Positions 487 to 30,265 are shown, numbered from the stretch's first letter. The stretch: 64,000 nucleotides of DNA from Gammaproteobacteria bacterium (GCA_050298595.1 JBNKUM010000085.1:160001-224000); one strand, 5' to 3'. Notes: a model not told the origin generated them from the sequence alone. A program made the numbers and translations.

Positions 487-552
487 TATTTGCCTCTATC
501 CAGAGCATGATTTCATATGCCCAGGCTTTCCTTGCTGCACAGCATCTTTCTT

Positions 553-578
553 GTAGGTGTACGAGCCTCTGCTCGATG
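553..578 (+). repeat. Degenerate GTAG-type REP-like palindrome
   Basis: GTAG followed by cgagc-ctct-gctcg hairpin between two convergent genes. Confidence 0.35.
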
Positions 579-612: not shown

Positions 613-652
613 TCACATATCACAGATGCGCTTCACATATCACAGATGCGCT
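613..652. repeat. Exact 20-bp tandem duplication of the hemG 3' end
   Basis: tcacatatcacagatgcgct at 613-632 and 633-652. Confidence 0.95.
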
Positions 653-1160
653 GACCAAATGCTTCAACCTGAGACCAGTCGGTAAAATCTATATTGGTGT
701 CTGGATCTGTTGGGCCTTTGGTCATCCACATAATCATCCTGATCATGGTGCGGTCAAACAGGCTGTATTTTTGATAATCGATCTTGCCAGCAAACACAGC
801 AAGATTTTTTGGCTGCCAGCTAATTTGCTTAAGAAACTTTTTTAAATACGGATTGGTGTCAGGCAGCCTTTTTTCAGCTTTGCGCGCTACAACATTCACC
901 GAAAAGAAAGCATTAGACTTGCTATCTAGCACCGACTCATTTTGCTTAATAAAATGATATATTTTATTACTGTGCTTGCCGTAACGAATACTCGCACCTA
1001 TGACAATCTTATCGTATTTATTTAACTCGGAAGGATTAACCTCGTCTACAGAAACAAGCGTCACCTGATTATTCTGCTTTTGTATAATTTGCCTGAGGCG
1101 TAAGCAGATCTCTCGAGTATGCCCATCGGTGGTTGAATAAATTATTAGAATGTTAGCCAT
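633..1160 (-). CDS. hemG: Menaquinone-dependent protoporphyrinogen IX dehydrogenase (flavodoxin fold)
   Basis: ILIIYSTTDGHT, GASIRYG, FFSVNVVARK, NPYLKKFL, IMWMTKGPTD, FTDW motifs; ATG at 1160. Confidence 0.92.
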   Translation of the reverse strand: MANILIIYSTTDGHTREICLRLRQIIQKQNNQVTLVSVDEVNPSELNKYDKIVIGASIRYGKHSNKIYHFIKQNESVLDSKSNAFFSVNVVARKAEKRLPDTNPYLKKFLKQISWQPKNLAVFAGKIDYQKYSLFDRTMIRMIMWMTKGPTDPDTNIDFTDWSQVEAFGQRICDM

Positions 1161-1594
1161 TGATTGCAAATTGTGTATTAGTCAAGCTACCACCTGATTC
1201 CCTTCCAGAAGCCAGGACCGTACTCATCTGATAACTGGACGCGTAGCGGGCACCGCGTCCGACCGCAATATATCTATTAAGCCTTCTTTATTGTCGCAGA
1301 AAACCTGTAGGGCAGGTCAAATATTTAGCCCTCATACAGAGAGACACTCAGGAAAATCATTAATTTAGATTCTACGAAATCCACTTATACTCATTCATAG
1401 TTTTTGTCATTTGAGCTCAGAAAAACGAGTCATTTTGCAGGATCTGAGCAAACTACAGCAGAGATATGGGCGAAGCTATATCAATCAATTCTGCTCTTAT
1501 TGATTGAGACTTATTGTTATATCTGGCCACCAACCTCGATATTAATTTATCAATGTGAGATGATAAATTCTAGAAATCACTAAAAGAGGAAATC

Positions 1595-1995: not shown

Positions 1996-2423
1996 CCGGA
2001 TTATGGTTTCACACCCCTTAGCTTTCCTGGCGCCGTAGTATCTGACGAGTACGTGTGCGAGTGGCTTTCTTTTTTCGCGAAAAGAAAGCTACCAAAAAAT
2101 TTACAGGATTAATTTTGAACAGCTCTGCTGGCCCGAAGGGTAGTGGGCAGGACACCCGGAATAACGACGTTCCACAGAAGTGGCCTGCGGCTTCTCGAAA
2201 CACAGCCATTTTCACAGAAAATTGCTCGGCTCTGGCACCCTAGGCTCAGGCATCCTGCTTCGCTCTATCTCCTCCCTCCCTGGAGTCGTGCTTCGCCCTA
2301 CCATCTAAGTCCCTTTAGGCGTCCTGCATTTTCTGCATACATGCCATCCCTGGCAATAAGGGCGATATAAAACCTCACCCTTCGATTCTGATTTTTGATT
2401 AAAGTTTTGAAGCCCGAACTTGC
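1996..2423 (+). repeat. Large structured mosaic repeat, left copy, containing nested smaller repeats
   Basis: Shares collinear blocks (ccggattatggtttcacac; gtgcgag; gtggcctgcggctt; caataagggcgat) with the reverse complement of 8204-8578; tail repeated at 4786-4869. Confidence 0.85.
2226..2323 (+). repeat. ~48-bp repeat unit (2241-2288) nested inside another copy of itself
   Basis: Outer halves tcggctctggcaccc / tgcttcgccctacc flank inner taggctcaggcatcctgcttcgctctatc...gtcg; other copies at 4630-4695 (minus) and 62841-62924. Confidence 0.8.
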
Positions 2424-2647
2424 ACGATTCCTTCCTGAAAACAGTCGCTCCCGGTTAATGAGTGTACCAATATCAGTCATTCAATACTGCGGTAAATCTT
2501 ATGAAATACCATAGTAATCTCACCTGACTTCTTCCCAAAAGGCATATATCTCTAGTGTCACGAAATTCTCACCATGTATGACGAAACAGCAGTTTGCCAA
2601 CTCATTGATTTCAAAACGCTTACAGTGATATAAAGAGGTCTTACAAT

Positions 2648-2692
2648 AAATGTATAACGAGACAAGGGGTCTCGTTAAGATAACTGTTAAGT
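2648..2692 (+). other. attI-like recombination site heading the left cassette array
   Basis: AAATGTATAACGAGACA-aggg-GTCTCGTTAA-gataa-CT-GTTAAGT; core GTTAAGT is the exact complement of ACTTAAC at the end of cassette 1; 36/42 identical to 7593-7634 (minus). Confidence 0.7.
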
Positions 2693-2700
2693 GTAAAACA

Positions 2701-3060
2701 ATGGGTAAGTATCGAAACTCTAAACTCTTTCCAAACGAACGTCAGGAAAAGACATTCCTTTATCCTCATGTTTGCCTAAGCTGTAGAAAGAGTTTTAAAA
2801 AAAGTCATTCTGAACAGCCTAGGTTGTGCCCTGATTGTCAGCAGCCTTTAATTCTGTTGAGTCGAAATTTTTCTGCACCTAAAACTAATGACGAGAAACA
2901 GTGGAAGAAAGTTGCTTTTCTAATTGAACAAGGGTTCCTATTTCAGCACGTTTACCAGAATGAATGGGGTGGTCAGTATGCGGCTTACCCAAAAACTTTG
3001 GCAGAGGCCAGAGAATTTGTCGTTAAGTACAAGAAATGGGCAATACAAAATGACACTTAA
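2701..3060 (+). CDS. Gene cassette 1: small zinc-ribbon protein of unknown function
   Basis: CLSCRKSFK...CPDC...F.APK..D.KQW; ATG 9 bp after the GTTAAGT core; stop codon overlaps the attC R'' box. Confidence 0.8.
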   Translation: MGKYRNSKLFPNERQEKTFLYPHVCLSCRKSFKKSHSEQPRLCPDCQQPLILLSRNFSAPKTNDEKQWKKVAFLIEQGFLFQHVYQNEWGGQYAAYPKTLAEAREFVVKYKKWAIQNDT

Positions 3061-3113
3061 CAAAAACATCAACCCAGACCCAGTAAAGCGGTCCGGTTAT
3101 ATTGGCGTTATGC
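3055..3113 (+). other. attC site (59 bp)
   Basis: R'' ACTTAAC ... aacccagacc / ggtccggtt inner stem ... R' GTTATGC. Confidence 0.85.
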
Positions 3114-3119
3114 ACTGAA

Positions 3120-3725
3120 ATGAGAAAACCAATAAGAAGAAGCAGGAATATCGGGAAAACCCAAGGTGGCAGGGTCAAGGATGGTCGTGCCGAAGAAAAG
3201 TGGAGCCGCCTTTTCCCTGAGAATAAATGGAGGCAAATATCCGAAGCAGAAATGTCTTGGCAGGCCTTCATTGAAAACCCGTCAAGAGATTTTTATCACC
3301 CCTGTAGTCCTGCTGACTACCTGGCCGTCCTAAGAAGGCTTCCTAATCATCAAACGGAAGATATTAAAGGAATTATTTTACGACGAACCCCCAAAAGAGA
3401 TTCACAGCTTGGAATTGATGCATGGCGAAGGTGGTCATGCATCATTATGAATGCGTTTCCATCAAACAACACATTTACTTACGAATACAAGCCAAAGCAA
3501 TCTCAGATCAGCTATTTCAAACCTTTCTGCAACAGGTGGAGAGAAGAAAATGGTGTTTGGTCATTAGAGTGGGAGGAAGAAGAAGTTCGTCGATACTATT
3601 TGTACCACGTATTTTTACACGAAATAGGTCACATCAACGATTTGTCAAAAACATCGCAAACGAAAAGGGAAAACTATGCTAATTCATTTGCAAGAGATAT
3701 GGCTGAATATCTTGGAGAGCGGTAA
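3120..3725 (+). CDS. Gene cassette 2: protein with HExxH (zincin-like) motif
   Basis: YHVFLHEIGH...E.YAN.FA; bounded by GTTATGC (3107) and complementary GCATAAC (3730). Confidence 0.75.
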   Translation: MRKPIRRSRNIGKTQGGRVKDGRAEEKWSRLFPENKWRQISEAEMSWQAFIENPSRDFYHPCSPADYLAVLRRLPNHQTEDIKGIILRRTPKRDSQLGIDAWRRWSCIIMNAFPSNNTFTYEYKPKQSQISYFKPFCNRWREENGVWSLEWEEEEVRRYYLYHVFLHEIGHINDLSKTSQTKRENYANSFARDMAEYLGER

Positions 3726-3729
3726 TAAT

Positions 3730-3800
3730 GCATAACATAACAATCAGATACATAGTACTCGCTCGCTGCCCTCACACTCCTGTGAGCCTGGCCGTTATGT
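3730..3800 (+). other. attC site (degenerate inner stem)
   Basis: R'' GCATAAC (alternative ACATAAC at 3735) ... R' GTTATGT at 3794-3800, immediately after a stop codon. Confidence 0.7.
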
Positions 3801-3878
3801 TCTTTTTTAATACAGTGAAGAACTATGAAAGTAGTGATCAATAATTTTCACACATATAAACAACAGTATTAATAGCTT

Positions 3879-4592
3879 ATGGAATGGTATACTGAAATTG
3901 ATCTTTATTGTGAACGAATTGATCCAGGTTTTTGGGCAGAGCCTTTAAATGCTATTACAAATATTGCTTTCATAGTTGCATCTTTTTGGGCCTGGCATAC
4001 GGCATATAAGCTCGGAAAGTTAGATATCACAATAAAATTACTTTGTATTATGGCTGCAAGTATTGGCATTGGTTCGTTTCTATTTCATACCTATGCAAAC
4101 TTATGGTCTTATTTTGCTGATGTGATTCCTATTTGGAGTTTTGTCGCCTTATATGTGGTGGTCTTAATAATTAGAACATCCGCTAAATCACCATTACGAG
4201 TCGATGGAATTGCAGCTGGTATTATAGCTATTATTGGCGTTGTATGGATTATAGGATCAGGCAGTGCCACCCAAACTAAAGCATCCCCTGATGTGCTAAA
4301 TGGATCTGAACAGTATGCTCCAGCCTTAATTGCTTTATATTTCTTTGCATTCATGAGTGTTCGTAAGAAAAATCCAATTAGACTATGGATTGTAAGTGCA
4401 GCAATGATTTTTACATTATCGTTAATTGCGCGCACAGTAGATTTACATTTATGCGAAACATTTCCTCACGGCACACACTTTTATTGGCATCTATTAGATG
4501 GGTTAATGGTTGGGCTTTTATTACAGGGGCTTATTCGAATTGAAAGGAAAGAAACGAACCTCAAATATGATCGTGTAACAGGAGGGCTCTAA
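3879..4592 (+). CDS. Gene cassette 3: ceramidase-domain (CREST superfamily) membrane protein
   Basis: YCER...WAEPLNAITN, GSFLFH, GTHFYWH motifs; about seven TM segments; AT-rich relative to core genes. Confidence 0.85.
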   Translation: MEWYTEIDLYCERIDPGFWAEPLNAITNIAFIVASFWAWHTAYKLGKLDITIKLLCIMAASIGIGSFLFHTYANLWSYFADVIPIWSFVALYVVVLIIRTSAKSPLRVDGIAAGIIAIIGVVWIIGSGSATQTKASPDVLNGSEQYAPALIALYFFAFMSVRKKNPIRLWIVSAAMIFTLSLIARTVDLHLCETFPHGTHFYWHLLDGLMVGLLLQGLIRIERKETNLKYDRVTGGL

Positions 4593-4633
4593 TGGTCTGT
4601 CCCCACAACACCCTGAATACGGGTCCACACACG
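4592..4633 (-). mobile_element. Short remnant of a group IIC-attC intron 3' end (degenerate domain V)
   Basis: Minus strand cgtgtgtggacccgtattcagggtgttgtgggg...AT|TAGAG resembles 6720-6750; junction lies at CTCTA|A, the R'' position after the cassette 3 stop. Confidence 0.55.
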
Positions 4634-4695
4634 ACTGAGGGGATTCAGGAAGTAGAGCGAAGCAAGATGCCTGAGCCGAGGAAGCCAGAACCGAG
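4630..4695 (-). repeat. Copy of the ~48-bp unit plus outer left half
   Basis: Minus strand ctcggttctggcttcc-tcggctcaggcatcttgcttcgctctacttcc...gtcg. Confidence 0.75.
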
Positions 4696-4785
4696 GGTGT
4701 TTCCCAAAGATGTTAAAGCAAGCTAAAGAAAATCAAACACAGAATATTCTAATATTAGAGTAATTTGTGACCCCGGATTGGCGCT

Positions 4786-4869
4786 TGCCATCCCTGACAA
4801 TAAGGGCGATAAAAAACCTCACTCTTCAGTGCTGATTTTTGATTAAACTTTTTTGATGCCCGAACTTGC
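4786..4869 (+). repeat. Direct repeat of the tail of the large structured repeat (2342-2423)
   Basis: tgccatccctg.caataagggcgat.aaaacctcac...ctgatttttgattaaa...gcccgaacttgc in both. Confidence 0.9.
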
Positions 4870-4969
4870 CATTCCTGACATCCTACGTATGTCTTTTTAA
4901 TGCACGTTAAGAGCTCTCAATATAATTCAGCTGATACCGCACACCTCCCATCAATGTGAAAACTTTTGT

Positions 4970-5001
4970 CGTAGGTCGGATAAGCAAAGCGCCATCCGAC
5001 A
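4970..5001 (+). repeat. GTAG-type REP
   Basis: cGTAG-GTCGGAT-aagcaaagcgcc-ATCCGAC-a, enterobacterial-style REP. Confidence 0.85.
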
Positions 5002-5041
5002 TAAACGATACAAGCACATTACCAAACTAAAAGTACGTCAA

Positions 5042-5068
5042 TGTTGGAAGGCGTCGTTCCTCCTTTTC
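5042..5068 (-). repeat. GTAG-type REP split by the IS (remainder at 6489-6497)
   Basis: Joining 5042-5068 to 6489-6497 gives, on the minus strand, cGTAG-GTTGGAA-aaggaggaacgacgcc-TTCCAAC-a. Confidence 0.85.
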
Positions 5069-5147
5069 CAATGACATGGACTCCTCCCCACTAAAGCGGT
5101 GATCCGTTAAAGTGAGAGGTCAACGAAACCAAAACAGGAGCCATGCC

Positions 5148-6177
5148 ATGAAAAATGATACAACAATTTGCATCGATTTATCGAAAGAGGTTTTTCAAGT
5201 AGCCGTATTCAACCGAGGAGGTAAAACCCTCATCAATAAAGCGATGTCATGCAAAAAAATGGTGAAAACCATCCACGAATACCCTGGCGCAAAAATCTAC
5301 ATGGAAGCATGCGGTTCAGCGCATTATTGGGGTCGATATTTTGTCGGGAAGGGATTTGAGGTAGGCCTGATCCCTCCTCATATTGCAGCCAGGTACCGTA
5401 CAGGAAATAAGAGTGACAAAAATGATGTGTTAGCGATCTTCGAAGCGAGTAAAAACCCAAAAATCCACTGTGTCCCCATCAGGACTGTGGAGCAGCAGGA
5501 TATTGCCTTGCTGCATAAACAGCGAGAAGGCTTCAAAAAGGAGCGTAATCAGGTGGTTAACCGGATCAGAAGTTTTTGCTCGGGAGTACGGTGTTCATTT
5601 CGCCATTGGAATCAAGCCTCTTTTAAGGCAGGTTCCTGAGGCTTTAGAGGATGCGGAAAACGAGCTCAGTGTGATGGCTCGGGAAATACTCTCAGAACTG
5701 CTCGTTCATCTCAGAGAGCTCATCTAACGGCTTGACAGTATGAGCCACACAATAGAGACCTATGCAAGAACGATAGAACCTTGCCGGCGATTGGTTATGC
5801 TGCCAGGTATATCCTGGCTGATCGCTAGTATGCTATATGCAAAATTTGGCGATTGTCATGCCTTTCAACGAGGGCGAGACACCAGCGCGAGTATAGGAAT
5901 CGTACACGCCCATTCAGAAAGCGGGGGGAAGATCAAGATCGGCAGCATCACAAAGCGAGGGGACATTTACCTTCGAAGTCTTGTGGTGAATGGCGCTCGA
6001 TCCGTGGTGAGTCATATCCAGGAGAAAGCCGATGGCTTAAGCTGCTGGATCAGGAAGTTGCTTGCGACAAAGAAATTTAACCAGGTCGTCATCGCGGTGG
6101 CCAACAAAGTGATCAGGATGGCTTGTGCCATGCTGAAAAGTGGCGATGAATACCGCCAGCCTGTCACCCAGGCATAA
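5148..6177 (+). pseudogene. IS110-family DEDD recombinase/transposase, disrupted
   Basis: IDLSK, MEACGSAHYWGR, KSDKND, ESGGK, ITKRGD.YLR motifs; frameshift in the T-run near 5573-5577 and in-frame TAA at 5725-5727. Confidence 0.92.
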
Positions 6178-6234
6178 CGGTATTCTTTAGCCTGTGTTTA
6201 ACGATAACAGTACCTATCATGTAGTTAGCTAATG

Positions 6235-6410
6235 AAGTAACGGATCATTATAGCTGGTAGCAGACCAGGCAAACCCTGAGTAGGTTGAAGGCCCTTTGAG
6301 GCCTCTTTTCCAATAAGGAGTTTGGTCTTCACGGCAAATAGCCGTACAGGTCTGGAGTAGCTCTCCATAACAAAGACCGAATATACGACAGCTAACACAG
6401 CTTATAAGAG
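6235..6410 (+). ncRNA. Putative bridge RNA / seekRNA of the IS1111-group element (ends approximate)
   Basis: Internal loop with GTAGGTTG (6280-6287) and CTTTTCCAA (6305-6313) matching the two strands of the reconstructed target CTTTTCCAACCTAC; closed by aggcc/ggcct and agacca/tggtct stems. Confidence 0.82.
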
Positions 6411-6463
6411 CGTTGCAACACAATGCCAACGAAGTGGAGTACTTGTAAGTTTTCTCAATAGTA

Positions 6464-6488
6464 TTGCAAAACAGGAGGAGTCCATATA
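6464..6488 (+). promoter_or_regulatory. -35 half of the circle-junction promoter of the IS
   Basis: TTGCAA at 6464-6469; joining the right end to the left end yields TA|CAAT exactly 17 bp downstream. Confidence 0.75.
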
Positions 6489-6536
6489 CAACCTACGATT
6501 CCGGGTTACGGGTTTACAGGTTATAGAAGGCAGCTG

Positions 6537-6783
6537 ACTGGTGGAAACAGAAGTCCTACCACCAACGCCGGTTTGAACAATGCACATTTCGAAAAGACAA
6601 GTCTCATATCCATGCGAAAGCTATGGTGCAAGATTCACCATCCGGCTACGGCCCGATAGACACTTGATATGAATTCGATTTACCCGATGAAGTATCTCAG
6701 TTAATAACTGGTCAGGCACCGTATACGGACCCGTATCTACGGTGTTGTGGCAAGGGGCTACTTGAGTAGCTCCCTATCCCGAT
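6537..6783 (+). mobile_element. 3' remnant of a group IIC-attC intron (IEP C-terminus, domains V and VI)
   Basis: Frame 6549-6659 reads RSPTTNAGLNNAHFEKTSLISMRKLWCKIHHPATAR*; DV gcaccgtatacggacccgtatctacggtgt (6716-6745); DVI ggggctacttgagtagctccctatcccgat ending AT|TAGCT, antisense to the cassette at its R'' box. Confidence 0.85.
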
Positions 6784-6789
6784 TAGCTT

Positions 6790-7122
6790 TTATCCTTTTA
6801 CGCCAAGCTCAAGAATATGACAAAAGATTTTTCCATTTCCATAGAAATCCTTTGGCTCTACCTTAAGATATACATCTTTTCCAGCTGCGTAAGCGCTCAA
6901 TAGTGTTGATATTTTCCCCTTTTCTCCTGAATCTTTTTCATCAACATATGCCCATGCGGGACCATCAGGGCAGTAACTCATGGATGCCATACCATATACT
7001 CTAAAGTAAAGGTTGTTACCACTAGATACAAACACTTGATTGATCTTAAACCAGCCTGTTGACTCAGCTGCATATGAAATACTAGATAATAATATCATTA
7101 CCGTTACTAATAAAACTCTCAT
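6790..7122 (-). CDS. Gene cassette B: small secreted protein of unknown function
   Basis: Signal peptide (SYA-A), two Cys, ISTLLSAYAAGKDVYL helix-strand; AGGAG RBS; begins after GTTAGTT core. Confidence 0.8.
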   Translation of the reverse strand: MRVLLVTVMILLSSISYAAESTGWFKINQVFVSSGNNLYFRVYGMASMSYCPDGPAWAYVDEKDSGEKGKISTLLSAYAAGKDVYLKVEPKDFYGNGKIFCHILELGVKG

Positions 7123-7144
7123 ACTTCCTACTCCTTTAAATTTA

Positions 7145-7228
7145 AACTAACGCTGCAAACACCGGAGGCAAAGCCATAGCGACGTAGGAGCGACAGCTTT
7201 TCCTTCCGTGTGATTTGCTTTGTTATAA
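7145..7228 (-). other. attC site (84 bp)
   Basis: Minus strand R'' TTATAAC-aaagcaaatcacacggaagg ... cctccggtgtttgcagc-GTTAGTT; R'' complements GTTATAA at the cassette start. Confidence 0.9.
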
Positions 7229-7229
7229 A

Positions 7230-7571
7230 TTATCTGATTCCGGCTCCCTGACTTGCTGTTGATGAGGCAGAGCAGATATCTTCGGCCATGGGGAGGTCTA
7301 TAACAACACCCCAGTCTTTATTGGCTGCAAATGCGGTCATCACCATTGATAAAGCCGCTTTAGCTCTCTCGGCCCCCATATCTGATACTTTGAAATACAC
7401 TCTATCCCACTTACAGAAGCCTTTAATATCTTGATTATCCAAGTCGACTTCAAAGCTACCATCAGGTCCAATAGTTCGAACAGATGTTACTTTTCCCCAA
7501 TACCATGCATTAGAAGCATAGGAATTAGAGGCTGCAATTATCAATAATAAAGTGGTGATGATTTTCAACAT
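7230..7571 (-). CDS. Gene cassette A: small secreted protein, distantly similar to cassette B
   Basis: Signal peptide (SYA-S), two Cys, ALSMVMTAFAANKDWGV; GGAG RBS; bounded by GTTATAA and TTATAAC. Confidence 0.8.
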   Translation of the reverse strand: MLKIITTLLLIIAASNSYASNAWYWGKVTSVRTIGPDGSFEVDLDNQDIKGFCKWDRVYFKVSDMGAERAKAALSMVMTAFAANKDWGVVIDLPMAEDICSASSTASQGAGIR

Positions 7572-7589
7572 AAACTATTTCTCCAAAAT

Positions 7590-7634
7590 TTATAACAGAT
7601 GTATTAACGAGACTTCATGTCTCGTTATACATTT
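7590..7634 (-). other. attI-like recombination site heading the right cassette array
   Basis: Minus strand AAATGTATAACGAGACA-tgaa-GTCTCGTTAA-tacat-CT-GTTATAA; 36/42 identical to 2648-2689. Confidence 0.7.
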
Positions 7635-7790
7635 TAAAAAAGCATTAGTAAAACAGAGTCGACAAGAAAAATATATAATCACTTTAGCGTACGACACTCA
7701 TAGTCATCTCTACCATATTCCAAAGGAAACCAGAGCTATTTTTTTTTAATATAAAGTAAAAATACGGCAATGTAGTAATGGCCTACAAAA

Positions 7791-7835
7791 ATGGACAATG
7801 CATTAAGGATACTTATTGTTGACGATCATAGTCTC
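7791..7835 (+). pseudogene. N-terminal fragment of a NarL-type response regulator
   Basis: MDNALRILIVDDHSL, after which the frame runs into repeat DNA. Confidence 0.5.
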
Positions 7836-7852
7836 GACAGAGTAGGGTCAGG

Positions 7853-8004
7853 CCTGAATGGTACTTACTTAAGGCTGTTATGCTGTTCATTGCGAGGAAC
7901 TAGCGACGTGGCAATCCCTTTGGGCAGATGGTTTCAGCACGGTTTAGAGATCGCCGCGCTGACGCTCGCAATGACATTTTTCTCTTAAGCAAGCTCCATT
8001 CGGG
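7853..8004. mobile_element. 152-bp MITE-like element carrying a REP-like hairpin
   Basis: 21-bp TIRs (17/21 match) at 7853-7873 and 7984-8004; TCAGG direct repeat at 7848-7852 and 8005-8009; internal tcattgcgag...ctcgcaatga palindrome. Confidence 0.7.
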
Positions 8005-8203
8005 TCAGGCCTTAATGACACACATAAATATCCCAAATCAGTAACGACTGCTATTGGCACCAACTTGCCTTTTTGCACCGCACAACGCGAACGTCGGCTT
8101 TATCAACTAACTTTCCATTCCCTGCAAACTGTCAGGAAGGGTAGAAATGGGTCGACACTAGCCAAATAAGCTAAAACTACAAATATCGCCTATGAATTCG
8201 AGC

Positions 8204-8578
8204 GCAAGGTCTGGCCTTATATTTAGAGCCCAAGGATTAGTAGAATCAAAATCCACACATTTAAATTCAAATTTTTCCCTTATTAAGATTTCAAGCACTG
8301 CTTGAAATCTCTGTCTTTTAATCGCCCTTATTGAGTGCCGAAAATCGAGCCATTTTGCAGGGTCAGAGCACATAGATGTGCGATGAGGACAGTCGAGCGG
8401 GGATGCGAGTCTGTCCGTGTCTTGCAAAATGGCTTGATTTTCGGGAAGCCGCAGGCCACTCAAATCGGGCTGGCCTTTTTTGCGCCTCTTTTTTGGCCAA
8501 ACAAAAAAGGGGCTCGCACGCCTACTAGAAAGACACTACGAAGCAAGGAAAGCCCGGGCGTGTGAAACCATAATCCGG
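8204..8578 (-). repeat. Large structured repeat, right copy, inverted relative to 1996-2423
   Basis: 8560-8578 is the exact reverse complement of 1996-2014; long internal stem ccgaaaatcgagccattttgca / tgcaaaatggcttgattttcgg. Confidence 0.85.
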
Positions 8579-30148: not shown

Positions 30149-30176
30149 TGCCCGTAGCTCTACGGGCACTTTATTT
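30149..30176 (+). terminator. Probable intrinsic terminator after metK
   Basis: tgcccgtag-ct-ctacgggca followed by ctttattt. Confidence 0.55.
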
Positions 30177-30240
30177 GAGGAGCGCTGCGACAGTCTTTAC
30201 TGCCAGGCTCGAATGAAGTTATACGGTCAACGGCGCTCAT
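30173..30240 (+). ncRNA. SAH riboswitch
   Basis: GAGGAGCGCTGCGAC...GCCAGGCTCG...AACGGCGCTC consensus blocks directly upstream of ahcY. Confidence 0.92.
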
Positions 30241-30265
30241 AAATCAAACCCACGAGGTAAAATTT

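Follow-up and report, generated by a model that had tools for sequence, protein, structure and literature searches.

The island at positions 1996 to 8578 of the window, by which we mean the whole 64-kb stretch of Gammaproteobacteria bacterium DNA that we analyzed, is probably what is left of two unrelated chromosomal integron arrays, placed tail to tail, together with sequences inserted later. On the basis of sequence comparison, we give this reading a probability of roughly 75%. The left arm (2495 to 4592, plus strand) would be an integron that lost intI by deletion but still has the spacer, the core of its attI (crossover G at 2686), and three cassettes. The right arm (7642 to 6783, minus strand) would be a fragment of another array, with an internal site of about 48 nt first and two cassettes behind it. 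A group II intron appears to have entered the bottom strand of the last attC in each arm, and a 5'-truncated 3' end of the intron survives. An IS110-family element probably inserted later between the arms, and dispersed short repeats would have come to fill the outer flanks. The island is ordinary integron debris, of a kind that is common in genomes with many cassette clusters.

Layout of the island

All of the island features described in an earlier, sequence-only reading of this DNA were found, with slight corrections to their coordinates (Table 1), and comparison of ORFs and Pfam matches agreed with it that the cassette cargo of the two arms is unlike. The edge repeats (1996 to 2098 and 8476 to 8578) are 75% complementary; proposed as a special structured part of the island, they turned out to belong to an ordinary dispersed family, with 15 matches on 11 contigs for 1996 to 2098. 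Much of the remaining flanks also matches dispersed repeats on many contigs, and the repeat at 2342 to 2423 recurs as a direct copy at 4786 to 4869 (D1, 90%; D8, 95%). The mirror symmetry of the island is not seen in the congener G073, where unrelated DNA, not the right arm, comes after the left arm, and the data require no function for it.

Two inverted copies of a 42-nt site (2648 to 2689 and 7593 to 7634), which are 86% complementary, each stand at the start of a row of small genes that points inward. The exact motif occurs at only those two places in the whole 5.49-Mb genome, and a genome scan with relaxed forms added C32:519-554 and C85:253800-253835. Contig C32 also carries a second orphan head of attI type, followed by a cassette and an attC.

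Table 1. Features of the island, with positions counted from the first nucleotide of the window
Feature	Position	Strand	Remarks
Dispersed short repeat block	1996-2342	+	Edge repeat proper is 1996-2098; adjoins the point of intI loss
Stretch missing from the G073 ortholog	2343-2494	+	Gap between window positions 2342 and 2495 in the alignment to L142
attI upstream part (intI-attI spacer remnant with degenerate upstream half-site)	2495-2644	+	Starts at the former intI ribosome-binding region
Left-arm core site	2645-2692	+	Hairpin TATAACGAGAC-N5-GTCTCGTTA, then CTGTT; crossover heptamer GTTAAGT 2686-2692; conservation block
Cassette 1	2686-3106	+	ORF 2701-3060, 119 aa, weak zinc-ribbon matches; attC-A 3055-3113
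Cassette 2	3107-3793	+	ORF 3102/3120-3725, about 201-207 aa, no Pfam family; attC-B 3730/3735-3800
Cassette 3	3794-4592	+	ORF 3879-4592, 237 aa, Ceramidase family PF05875; attC cut at R''
Short 3' group II intron fragment (domain V region)	4593-4640	-	Abuts cassette 3
More dispersed repeats	4630-4869		4630-4695 is an inverted copy of 2225-2290; 4786-4869 is a direct copy of 2342-2423
IS110-family insertion sequence	about 5072-6489	+	Transposase in two frames, 5112-5639 and 5740-6177
Group II intron 3' end, 5'-truncated	6563-6785	+	Opposite to cassette direction; inserted at R'' of the last right-arm attC
Cassette 5 (right arm, inner)	6783-7150	-	ORF 7122-6790, 110 aa, no Pfam family; R'' remnant AGCTAA 6788-6783
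attC-D	7145-7228	-	Best attC of the window; covariance model 38.7 bits
Cassette 4 (right arm, outer)	7151-7596	-	ORF 7571-7230, 113 aa, no Pfam family
Right-arm core site copy, internal type	7590-7642	-	About 48 nt conserved; crossover heptamer GTTATAA 7596-7590
Dispersed repeats, several families	7644-8578		End is the inverted edge repeat 8476-8578; copies on many contigs

Cassette boundaries and attC sites

Three pairs of boundary heptamers are exact complements, as had been pointed out (7 of 7 positions in each pair): GTTAAGT (2686 to 2692) and ACTTAAC (3055 to 3061) for cassette 1, GTTATGC (3107 to 3113) and GCATAAC (3730 to 3736) for cassette 2, and, on the minus strand, GTTATAA (7596 to 7590) and TTATAAC (7228 to 7222) for cassette 4. 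The R'' of cassette 5 has one mismatch to its own cassette start (AGCTAA[C] vs AACTAAC). The R'' of cassette 3, GCTCTAA, has no match to its own cassette start, and its position in the cut attC overlaps the stop codon.

We scanned the window with a covariance model for attC that we built ourselves (R1, 31 seeds, all from other genomes; not the model of IntegronFinder). In the alignment of this model, 72.2% of cells are paired, compared to 30 to 42% with the partners slid. The three proposed attC sites matched and nothing else in the 64-kb window did. Their scores were 38.7 bits for 7145-7228(-) (E 1.7e-6), 30.3 bits for 3735-3800(+) (E 1.3e-4), and 30.1 bits for 3055-3113(+) (E 1.5e-4), and the next-best score on both strands with filters off was 11.4 bits. 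There is thus a cassette array in each arm, marked by 3055-3113 and 3735-3800 in the left and by 7145-7228 and the intron-cut R'' in the right. Elsewhere in the genome, where 150 of 514 candidates were scored, at least 40 matches reached E<=0.01, including an array beside the intact intI on C89. The bottom strand of attC-D forms one bulged hairpin (z -2.4), and that of attC-A alone folds poorly (z +0.2). A canonical attC is described in PMC12901181 as R''-L''...L'-R' with a length of 57 to 141 bp. The three window sites share its RYYYAAC and GTTRRRY ends and its bulged stems, whereas the core site of about 48 nt scores 9 to 11 bits on R1, falls below that length range, and has AAA where R'' has AAC.

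Loss of the integrase gene from the left arm

The absence of a tyrosine recombinase was confirmed: the genome has 17 matches to TIGR02249 and 11 to PF00589, none of them on contig C85, which carries the window. A complete integron has intI adjoining an attI, with GTTRRRY at the head of the array. Only the left arm has such an attI (2495 to 2692), the right arm does not, and in place of an adjoining intI there remains the spacer up to the former ribosome-binding region. An alignment of about 164 nt, which starts in the intI ribosome-binding region and ends with the crossover GTT, matches the left site to attI of the intact integron G076:C339 of the same genus. The left site also fits a multiple alignment with the attI of six other genomes, and blastn homology upstream in the left arm extends 124 nt. 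Judging from these alignments, a distinct integron class has the 42-nt site as its attI core, and the left arm is an integron with intI deleted and about 160 to 190 nt of the intI-attI spacer kept. A -35/-10-like pair lies upstream of the left core at 2619 to 2647 (a weak promoter-like match, 9 of 12), and the kept spacer may still supply a cassette promoter.

In other genomes, the same site is accompanied by its integrase gene. Using this genome's own IntI as a tblastn query, we detected full-length intI beside the site at L026/L050 (same genus), L038, L060, L077, L096, L107, L133, and L141, with intI upstream of the site; in seven loci the distance between the first site and the first aligned codon of intI is 135 to 166 nt. 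An architecture of free-standing capture sites, which the sequence-only reading had proposed, is not supported, since intI beside this site in relatives answers a refuting condition which that reading had itself set. Across 22 heads of attI type, 6 have a full intI, 5 have an N-terminal fragment only, and 11 have no intI, although 2 of these 11 offer <500 nt of upstream sequence to inspect. The point at which intI homology ends varies across genomes from 30 to 587 nt upstream, with no preferred point. This continuum of truncation points suggests stepwise decay rather than design.

Cassette gain at the orphan attI

We compared the left arm to G073, a metagenome-assembled genome with about 6% contamination. 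Contig C4 of G073 has the same intI-less junction but is without cassettes 1 and 2, and the break coincides precisely with the crossover points; cassette 3 (94% identical) comes immediately after the site, with no IS. The proteins of cassettes 1 and 2 were found in none of the 78 other genomes of the family. Given that the two genomes share the intI-less junction, cassettes 1 and 2 would have been gained after the loss of intI, which indicates that an integrase acted in trans. The identity of the site, the loss of intI, and the gain of cassettes at the orphan attI are all documented by these alignments. The cassettes themselves presumably moved as integron cassettes usually do, through attI x attC recombination at G|TT, catalyzed by an integrase made elsewhere in the cell. 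A point against this reading is that the only two stop-free intI (C89 and C75) are 37 to 43% identical to the clade that accompanies this attI; attI sites are reported in PMC2095811 to be recognized by the cognate integrase only. Service in trans, as proposed in the sequence-only reading, thus stands for the left attI, and the distributed architecture that went with it is not supported. The comparison provides a clean natural case of an attI that still captured cassettes after its own integrase gene was lost, and it bears on how integrase-less clusters remain dynamic.

That architecture would be an integron whose orphan attI sites selection maintains as additional landing pads, all served by one integrase elsewhere, with two of them head to head here. 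Cassette gain at the left attI after intI loss would fit it, as would the second orphan head on C32, the presence of at least 40 attC matches over many contigs vs only two stop-free intI, and the recurrence of orphan heads in other genomes, where 11 of 22 are without detectable intI. However, intI fragments of every length beside the same site are a signature of decay, the right-arm site is not an attI head, and the attI stretch is no better conserved between this genome and G073 (89.6%) than the flanking DNA (87 to 94%). In addition, the integrase of the cognate clade in this genome (C99) is a pseudogene with a frameshift and a TGA stop. We consider selected landing pads unlikely. In laboratory assays, an attI provided in trans is routinely used by integrases, so no special architecture is needed.

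Clusters of attC sites that lack an integron integrase are known as CALINs. The term is that of Cury et al. (2016, PMC4889954). The island resembles CALINs and degenerate sedentary chromosomal integrons in its promoterless small ORFs between attC sites, with no intI nearby, in a genome that has intI and many more attC clusters elsewhere. Unlike a CALIN, the left arm keeps a recognizable attI with part of the intI-attI spacer, and this attI appears to have taken up cassettes after intI loss, so that it is better described as an integron minus its integrase gene than as a bare attC cluster.

Origin of the right arm

Two attI-like sites had been described in the island. The left one is a true attI, whereas the right one is a copy of internal type and not a head: conservation there is limited to about 48 nt, as in the copies that close cassettes inside arrays, and the sequence upstream cannot be aligned with attI regions. 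The right-arm copy in G073 is 99.9% identical to the window, compared to 87 to 94% for the left arm, which suggests that the G073 contigs may stem from a mixture of strains.

An alternative origin for the right arm, and possibly for further clusters, is the insertion of cassettes by an integrase into a non-att genomic site, with no local integron ancestor; this attG route has been proposed as an origin of integrase-less attC clusters (10.1101/2022.09.11.507474). The lack of an attI upstream region is consistent with such an origin, the site differs from the genome's other three copies at variable positions, and the 99.9% identity to the G073 contig, vs about 90% for the left arm, hints at recent arrival. 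Yet the arm opens with a complete site of internal type, as expected of a piece broken from an array, and its upstream flank of dispersed repeats could equally have replaced earlier cassettes; moreover, no empty site was found for comparison. We therefore regard the attG route as very unlikely and favor descent of the right arm from a second array.

The attI core as a cassette end

The 42-nt site is present in 112 stretches of a collection of species-representative genomes. As a rule it does not stand at the head of an array: roughly 140 of the 169 unique instances are situated between cassettes, with up to five per array, where they alternate with canonical attC. In 26 of 46 cases, the next site is preceded by a word complementary to the first six bases of the cassette itself (shuffled control: mean 3.2, maximum 9, in 1000 shuffles), and in 25 of those 26 this word lies exactly 5 nt before TATAAC. 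Site pairs within a locus match at all 14 variable positions in 69% of cases, compared to 2.7% between loci. Internal copies equal the local head copy at all 14 positions in L050, L060, L068, and L141, as does the first internal copy in L096, while in some arrays (e.g., L139 and L055) copies differ from the local head, as if brought in with their cassette. In this integron class, as far as these patterns indicate, the same site of about 48 nt closes many cassettes instead of attC.

Another reading of the 42-nt element is that it is no recombination site but a small mobile hairpin repeat, a terminator, or a regulatory hairpin between genes. It does form a stable hairpin (z -5.1 and -5.7 for the left core site, -4.8 and -5.4 for the right-arm copy), a terminator scan flags it on the minus strand, and it is multicopy in many taxa. 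These properties do not account for its fixed position beside intI or for a conservation block that starts about 8 nt before TATAAC and stops exactly at GTT, with variable RRRY after it. They also leave unexplained that cassette presence and absence break at the same GTT, that the sequence before internal copies complements the cassette's own start, and that, within an array, copies and canonical attC alternate. We consider a hairpin without a role in recombination extremely improbable.

Cassettes that end in a piece of attI are known from class 1 and class 2 mobile integrons as delta-attI-type cassettes. The internal copies match that type: the 3' end of the cassette is attI sequence up to the crossover G, here the last 48 nt or so, with the cassette's own R''-like word just upstream. 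PMC12901181 counts 96 delta-attI1-type cassettes in 1,685 class 1 integrons and 14 of the delta-attI2 type in 57 class 2 integrons, and clinical delta-attI cassettes mostly retain only 14 to 18 nt. In contrast, the type is a main one here, in chromosomal arrays of environmental bacteria, and the piece kept, a putative recombination site, contains a 9-bp hairpin.

Taken together, these observations tentatively suggest, at somewhat short of even odds, a class of chromosomal integrons with a 9-bp-hairpin attI whose last 48 nt or so would routinely serve as the 3' recombination site of the cassettes, and whose orphan attI sites (e.g., 2495 to 2692) would still be active landing sites for an integrase acting in trans. 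The integron type of the 42-nt site is little described and common in marine sulfur bacteria. The apparent hosts of the hairpin-attI class include Candidatus Thiodiazotropha, Sedimenticolaceae, Ectothiorhodospiraceae-like bacteria, and other marine bacteria, and are mainly marine sulfur-oxidizing Gammaproteobacteria. If this is true, cassette traffic in the class would consist largely of attI-like x attI-like reactions. Because cassettes bounded by the core site score 9 to 11 bits on the attC model, they are probably missed by attC-based tools, and for these symbiont and sediment lineages, surveys with attC models may count too few arrays and break arrays into pieces. Delta-attI-type cassettes, which PMC12901181 describes as rarities of clinical integrons, would then have a widespread environmental counterpart.

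Intron fragments and the IS110-family element

Neither of the window's own intron stubs matched Rfam RF00029 at E<=10, even in small searches, and their identity as group II introns follows from similarity to copies in the genome that do match. The stub at 6563-6785(+) has six other copies in the genome (65 to 223 nt, 83 to 94% identity) and is 90 to 94% identical to those matched by RF00029, which score 45.6 bits on C74, 43 on C100, and 31.6 on C48. The stub at 4599 to 4631 is 91% identical to C18:3359-3391, in the domain V region of an RF00029 match at C18:3330-3399. In all six copies examined, the complement of an R''-like word, xxxATAA, comes after a shared 3' end; the window stub at 6563 to 6785 abuts the stop codon of cassette 5. 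No intron-encoded protein or reverse transcriptase ORF was found in the window, and RVT_1 matches occur only on C13, C75, and C119.

PMC3001079 describes group IIC-attC introns as inserting into the attC bottom strand, mostly in last cassettes and in the orientation opposite to that of cassette transcription. Both stubs resemble them in bottom-strand insertion, in orientation, in lying in the last cassette, and in their position between the gene and the rest of the attC; unlike those introns, they are 3' fragments, of about 40 and 223 nt, and are candidate members of that lineage.

The IS110-family element contains both transposase domains of that family, PF01548 DEDD_Tnp_IS110 at 5112 to 5639 (E 2.6e-11) and PF02371 Transposase_20 at 5740 to 6177 (E 6.5e-14), but the frame is split in two, which suggests that this copy is probably inactive. 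Contig C4 of G073 has the uninterrupted empty site, indicating that the element is a simple insertion relative to G073.

Layout of the island and its attC sites

The window (C85:160001-224000) comes from a draft genome of 5.49 Mb, G000, and all features that the sequence-only reading had listed between 1996 and 8578 are present (Table). Two copies of a 42-nt site (also called here the 48-nt or hairpin site) lie inverted to each other with 86% complementarity. Each holds a 9-bp hairpin, TAACGAGAC-N5-GTCTCGTTA, followed by CTGTT; the hairpin folds well above shuffles (z of -4.8 to -5.7), and small ORFs run inward from each copy on the inward strand. The heptamers at the cassette boundaries are exact complements, with slightly corrected coordinates. 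The centre of the island is occupied by an IS110-family element whose transposase is split over two frames; REP-like palindromic units flank its insertion point, and the uninterrupted target is present in G073, another genome of the family. Contig C85 lacks a tyrosine recombinase, as had been noted for the 64 kb: the genome gave 17 matches to TIGR02249 and 11 to PF00589, none of them on C85.

An attempt to find attC sites by RYYYAAC/GTTRRRY words combined with minimum-free-energy folding was abandoned because it missed eye-obvious attC sites of an array on contig C89, where R'' departs from strict RYYYAAC and the folded structure leaves out the AAC/GTT closure of three bases. Instead, we walked arrays from known cassette starts and built a covariance model. 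In the walk, each cassette start that follows a hairpin site in other genomes was paired with its exact complement downstream; one was present for 73 of 144 starts, compared to 14 of 144 for a reversed-word control. The model alignment comprised 31 clear sites taken from this walk, none from G000, in which the proposed R-box/L-box pairing held in 72.2% of cells (30 to 42% with partners slid) with a covariation score of 0.358 (at most 0.172 with partners slid). Run on the entire window, both strands, with filters off, the model gave three significant matches, which are exactly the three attC sites proposed earlier; the next-best match scored 11.4 bits. Rejection of these sites by an attC model, named beforehand as a refuting outcome, thus did not occur. 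Elsewhere in the genome, the same model detected at least 40 sites at E<=0.01 on many contigs (150 of 514 candidates scored), among them the array adjoining an intact intI on C89. The G000 genome is full of cassette clusters.

Table. Features of the island and two others mentioned in the text (window coordinates)
Feature	Position	Strand	Description
Flavodoxin-domain gene	633-1169	-	PF12724
Left edge repeat	1996-2098		
Left arm	2495-4592	+	cassettes 1-3
Left 42-nt site	2648-2689		
Cassette 1	2686-3106	+	
ORF, left arm	2701-3060	+	119 aa, weak zinc-ribbon matches
attC	3055-3113	+	30.1 bits
ORF, cassette 2	3102-3725	+	no family
Cassette 2	3107-3793	+	
attC	3735-3800	+	30.3 bits
Cassette 3	3794-4592	+	
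ORF, cassette 3	3879-4592	+	Ceramidase family
Left intron stub	~4593-4640	-	
REP-like unit	4965-5010		
REP-like unit	6490-6515		
Right intron stub	6563-6785	+	
Right arm	7642-6783	-	cassettes 4-5
ORF, cassette 5	7122-6790	-	no family
attC	7145-7228	-	38.7 bits
ORF, right arm	7571-7230	-	no family
Right 42-nt site	7593-7634		
Right edge repeat	8476-8578		
SAH riboswitch	30171-30245	+	56.6 bits

The cassette 2 protein has no Pfam family. A HEIGH word close to its C-terminus, spotted by eye in the DNA, points to a possible small zinc metallopeptidase. An Rfam search of the island returned chance-level matches only; the sole match above gathering score in the 64 kb is the SAH riboswitch, far from the island. 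On the left flank, the segment at ~482-1479 with the flavodoxin-domain gene is missing from otherwise syntenic contig C4 of G073.

The hairpin site as an attI core

The G000 genome has four copies of the site: the two in the window, C85:253800-253835, and C32:519-554. Of the 79 family genomes, G000 included, 8 carry it (among them 5 of the 13 other genomes of the genus and 2 of the 61 of a sister genus), and a reversed control pattern gave no matches in these genomes. When species were scanned at one genome each, 112 stretches with the site were recovered, mostly in Candidatus Thiodiazotropha, Sedimenticolaceae, assemblies labelled Ectothiorhodospiraceae, and other marine gammaproteobacterial assemblies; many bear two to five copies spaced as cassettes. 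Conservation across 147 unique instances begins about 8 nt ahead of TATAAC and extends to CTGTTA; the sequence outside this block is variable. Up to five copies per contig were also seen in assemblies labelled as distant phyla (L099, a Thermodesulfovibrionia MAG; L039 and L097, Sulfurovum; L037, Chloroflexota; L070, Actinomycetes), reflecting either horizontal spread of arrays or mis-binned contigs.

In other genomes, the site has an integron integrase gene as its neighbour. Using the C89 IntI as a tblastn query, we found full-length intI beside the site in L026/L050 (G076:C339, same genus), L038, L060, L077, L096, L107, L133, and L141. At seven loci, the first site lies 135 to 166 nt from the first aligned intI codon in divergent orientation, where an attI is placed. 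On their upstream side, the head copies have another conserved stretch in common, which includes a degenerate half-copy of the hairpin. This stretch is present at the left-arm site and the C32 copy and absent at the right-arm site and the C85:253835 copy; of the two attI-like sites proposed in the island, the right one therefore lacks the attI upstream region. A literature search, with supplements (Table S1 of PMC12901181, attC catalogues) outside its scope, found no paper describing the site or Thiodiazotropha integrons, and papers containing one of three short strings were unrelated among the matches listed.

Most site instances stand between cassettes, and they alternate with canonical attC within one array. 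In 26 of 46 cases, the next site is immediately preceded by the complement of the cassette's first six bases (shuffled mean 3.2, maximum 9); in 25 of the 26, this complement lies exactly 5 nt ahead of TATAAC. Fourteen variable positions of the site are identical in 69% of 68 within-locus pairs versus 2.7% of 4,962 between-locus pairs, and head and internal copies match fully at all 14 in L050, L060, L068, and L141. The attC model gives hairpin sites 9 to 11 bits. Judging from these sequence patterns, internal copies probably behave as cassette ends. The delta-attI-type cassettes of PMC12901181, in which a piece of attI replaces attC, show the same pattern, and such cassettes appear to be a standard type in hairpin-site arrays. 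The island led to a poorly described integron variant, in which the attI core probably doubles as a cassette end.

Intron stubs, edge repeats, and symmetry of the arms

The right stub matches six other copies in the genome over 65 to 223 nt, with a shared 3' end and variable 5' ends; in all of them the complement of an R''-like word comes next, and three of the six match RF00029 in Rfam. The stub abuts the cassette 5 stop codon and is oriented against the cassettes, and the left stub matches the domain V region of the copy on contig C18. Within the window, the stubs gave no match to RF00029 and there is no reverse transcriptase. PMC3001079 describes group IIC-attC introns with this position and orientation, mostly in the last cassette; the right stub has the same placement, as a 3' fragment lacking a reverse transcriptase. 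A probable identity of the stubs as 3' fragments of group II introns in attC is supported by these matches, the IIC-attC lineage being a candidate.

The family to which the edge repeats belong was hit 15 times across 11 contigs. Its members are dispersed repeats of ~100 to 200 nt beginning GGATTATGGTTTCAC (contigs include C4, C109, C69, C89, C57, C115, C80, and C21); they border cassette arrays in G000 and G073, and in G073 a dispersed-repeat member follows the intron stub. The flanking sequence largely matches further short dispersed repeat families. These dispersed edge repeats may be MITE-like.

Inverted duplication as the source of the symmetry is ruled out, as the sequence-only reading had held: the cargo differs between the arms, the sites differ at variable positions, and only the left arm has the attI upstream region. 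The features of the mirror-symmetric island were correctly observed. Their apparent mirror order follows with no common design, since both arrays point inward and introns of this kind insert preferentially into the final attC.

Loss of intI and probable cassette gain

Alignment of the left arm with an intact integron of the same genus spans 164 nt, starting at the former intI ribosome-binding region and ending at the crossover; dispersed repeats lie beyond. This marks the left arm as an integron with intI removed. We consider the island to be a decayed integron and an array fragment placed tail to tail, with a probability of roughly 75%. The alternative of a distributed integron, with head-to-head free-standing capture sites served by one integrase in trans, is unlikely; its trans component and its architecture fared differently.

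Service in trans is supported by comparison with G073:C4, the ortholog of the left flank and left arm (87 to 94% identity). The two sequences have in common the junction of a dispersed repeat with the decayed, intI-less spacer, so loss of intI predates the split of the two species. In G073:C4, the site leads straight into cassette 3. Neither the IS nor cassettes 1 and 2 (2686-3793) are present there, and the alignment gap spanning the two cassettes begins and ends precisely at the two crossover positions. The cassette 1 and 2 proteins have homologs in none of the 78 other family genomes. The simpler reading is that both cassettes were gained in the G000 lineage, next to the attI, which is the entry point for new cassettes; on this reading, the island records capture by an orphan attI. 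As caveats, the G073 metagenome assembly is contaminated, and its right-arm contig, only 1,684 nt long, is 99.9% identical to the window; its C4 ends 1.6 kb past the left arm.

A free-standing capture site as an architecture did not hold up. By a crude motif rule, attI-type heads make up 22 of the 169 unique instances; the rule missed four intI-adjacent first sites (L077 and L133 with full intI, L071 and L089 with fragments). Full intI is present at 6 of the 22 heads, only an N-terminal fragment (19 to 164 residues) at 5, and no intI at 11, which include the left arm, C32, and the G073 ortholog (two of the 11 have <500 nt of upstream sequence available). At 15 orphan or truncated heads, homology to intact heads ends at 30, 56, 78, 81, 85, 95, 116, 120, 124, 170, 178, 196, 237, 409, and 587 nt. 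This continuum, together with intI remnants of graded length, indicates random erosion that proceeded from intI inward. The same end-points rule out a discrete mobile attI module, considered because the left arm and C32 keep roughly the whole spacer. The island is not a new architecture.

Integrases and other arrays in the genome

The G000 integrase of the matching clade, at C99:142-1023, is 68 to 69% identical to the L060 and L077 enzymes (42 to 43% for the C89 integrase). A frameshift near residue 40 and an in-frame TGA interrupt the gene, and contig C99 ends within the attI region of this integrase. The missing attI of the pseudogene is not the one on C32, which runs upstream into an unrelated ORF. 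The contig starts C26:2-91 and C70:2-91 are identical over 90 nt and encode the C-terminal 30 residues of an IntI belonging to the hairpin-site clade (67 to 69% identity); a further intI copy may be hidden in this assembly break.

On C32, attC matches at 5244-5312 and 5971-6054 (+) point away from the orphan attI (519-554, minus strand), so two oppositely oriented arrays are present there as well; this contig also has a 535-aa tyrosine recombinase-like ORF, at 8008-8445. A second integron lies at C75:87838-93596, with an intI of 374 bits (model positions 28-314) and an intI-like fragment upstream. One of its cassette attC sites appears to be split by a plus-strand sequence that begins with GTGTG and includes a reverse transcriptase ORF with a TGA (91030-91653); by eye, the orientation of this sequence to the cassettes looked unusual.
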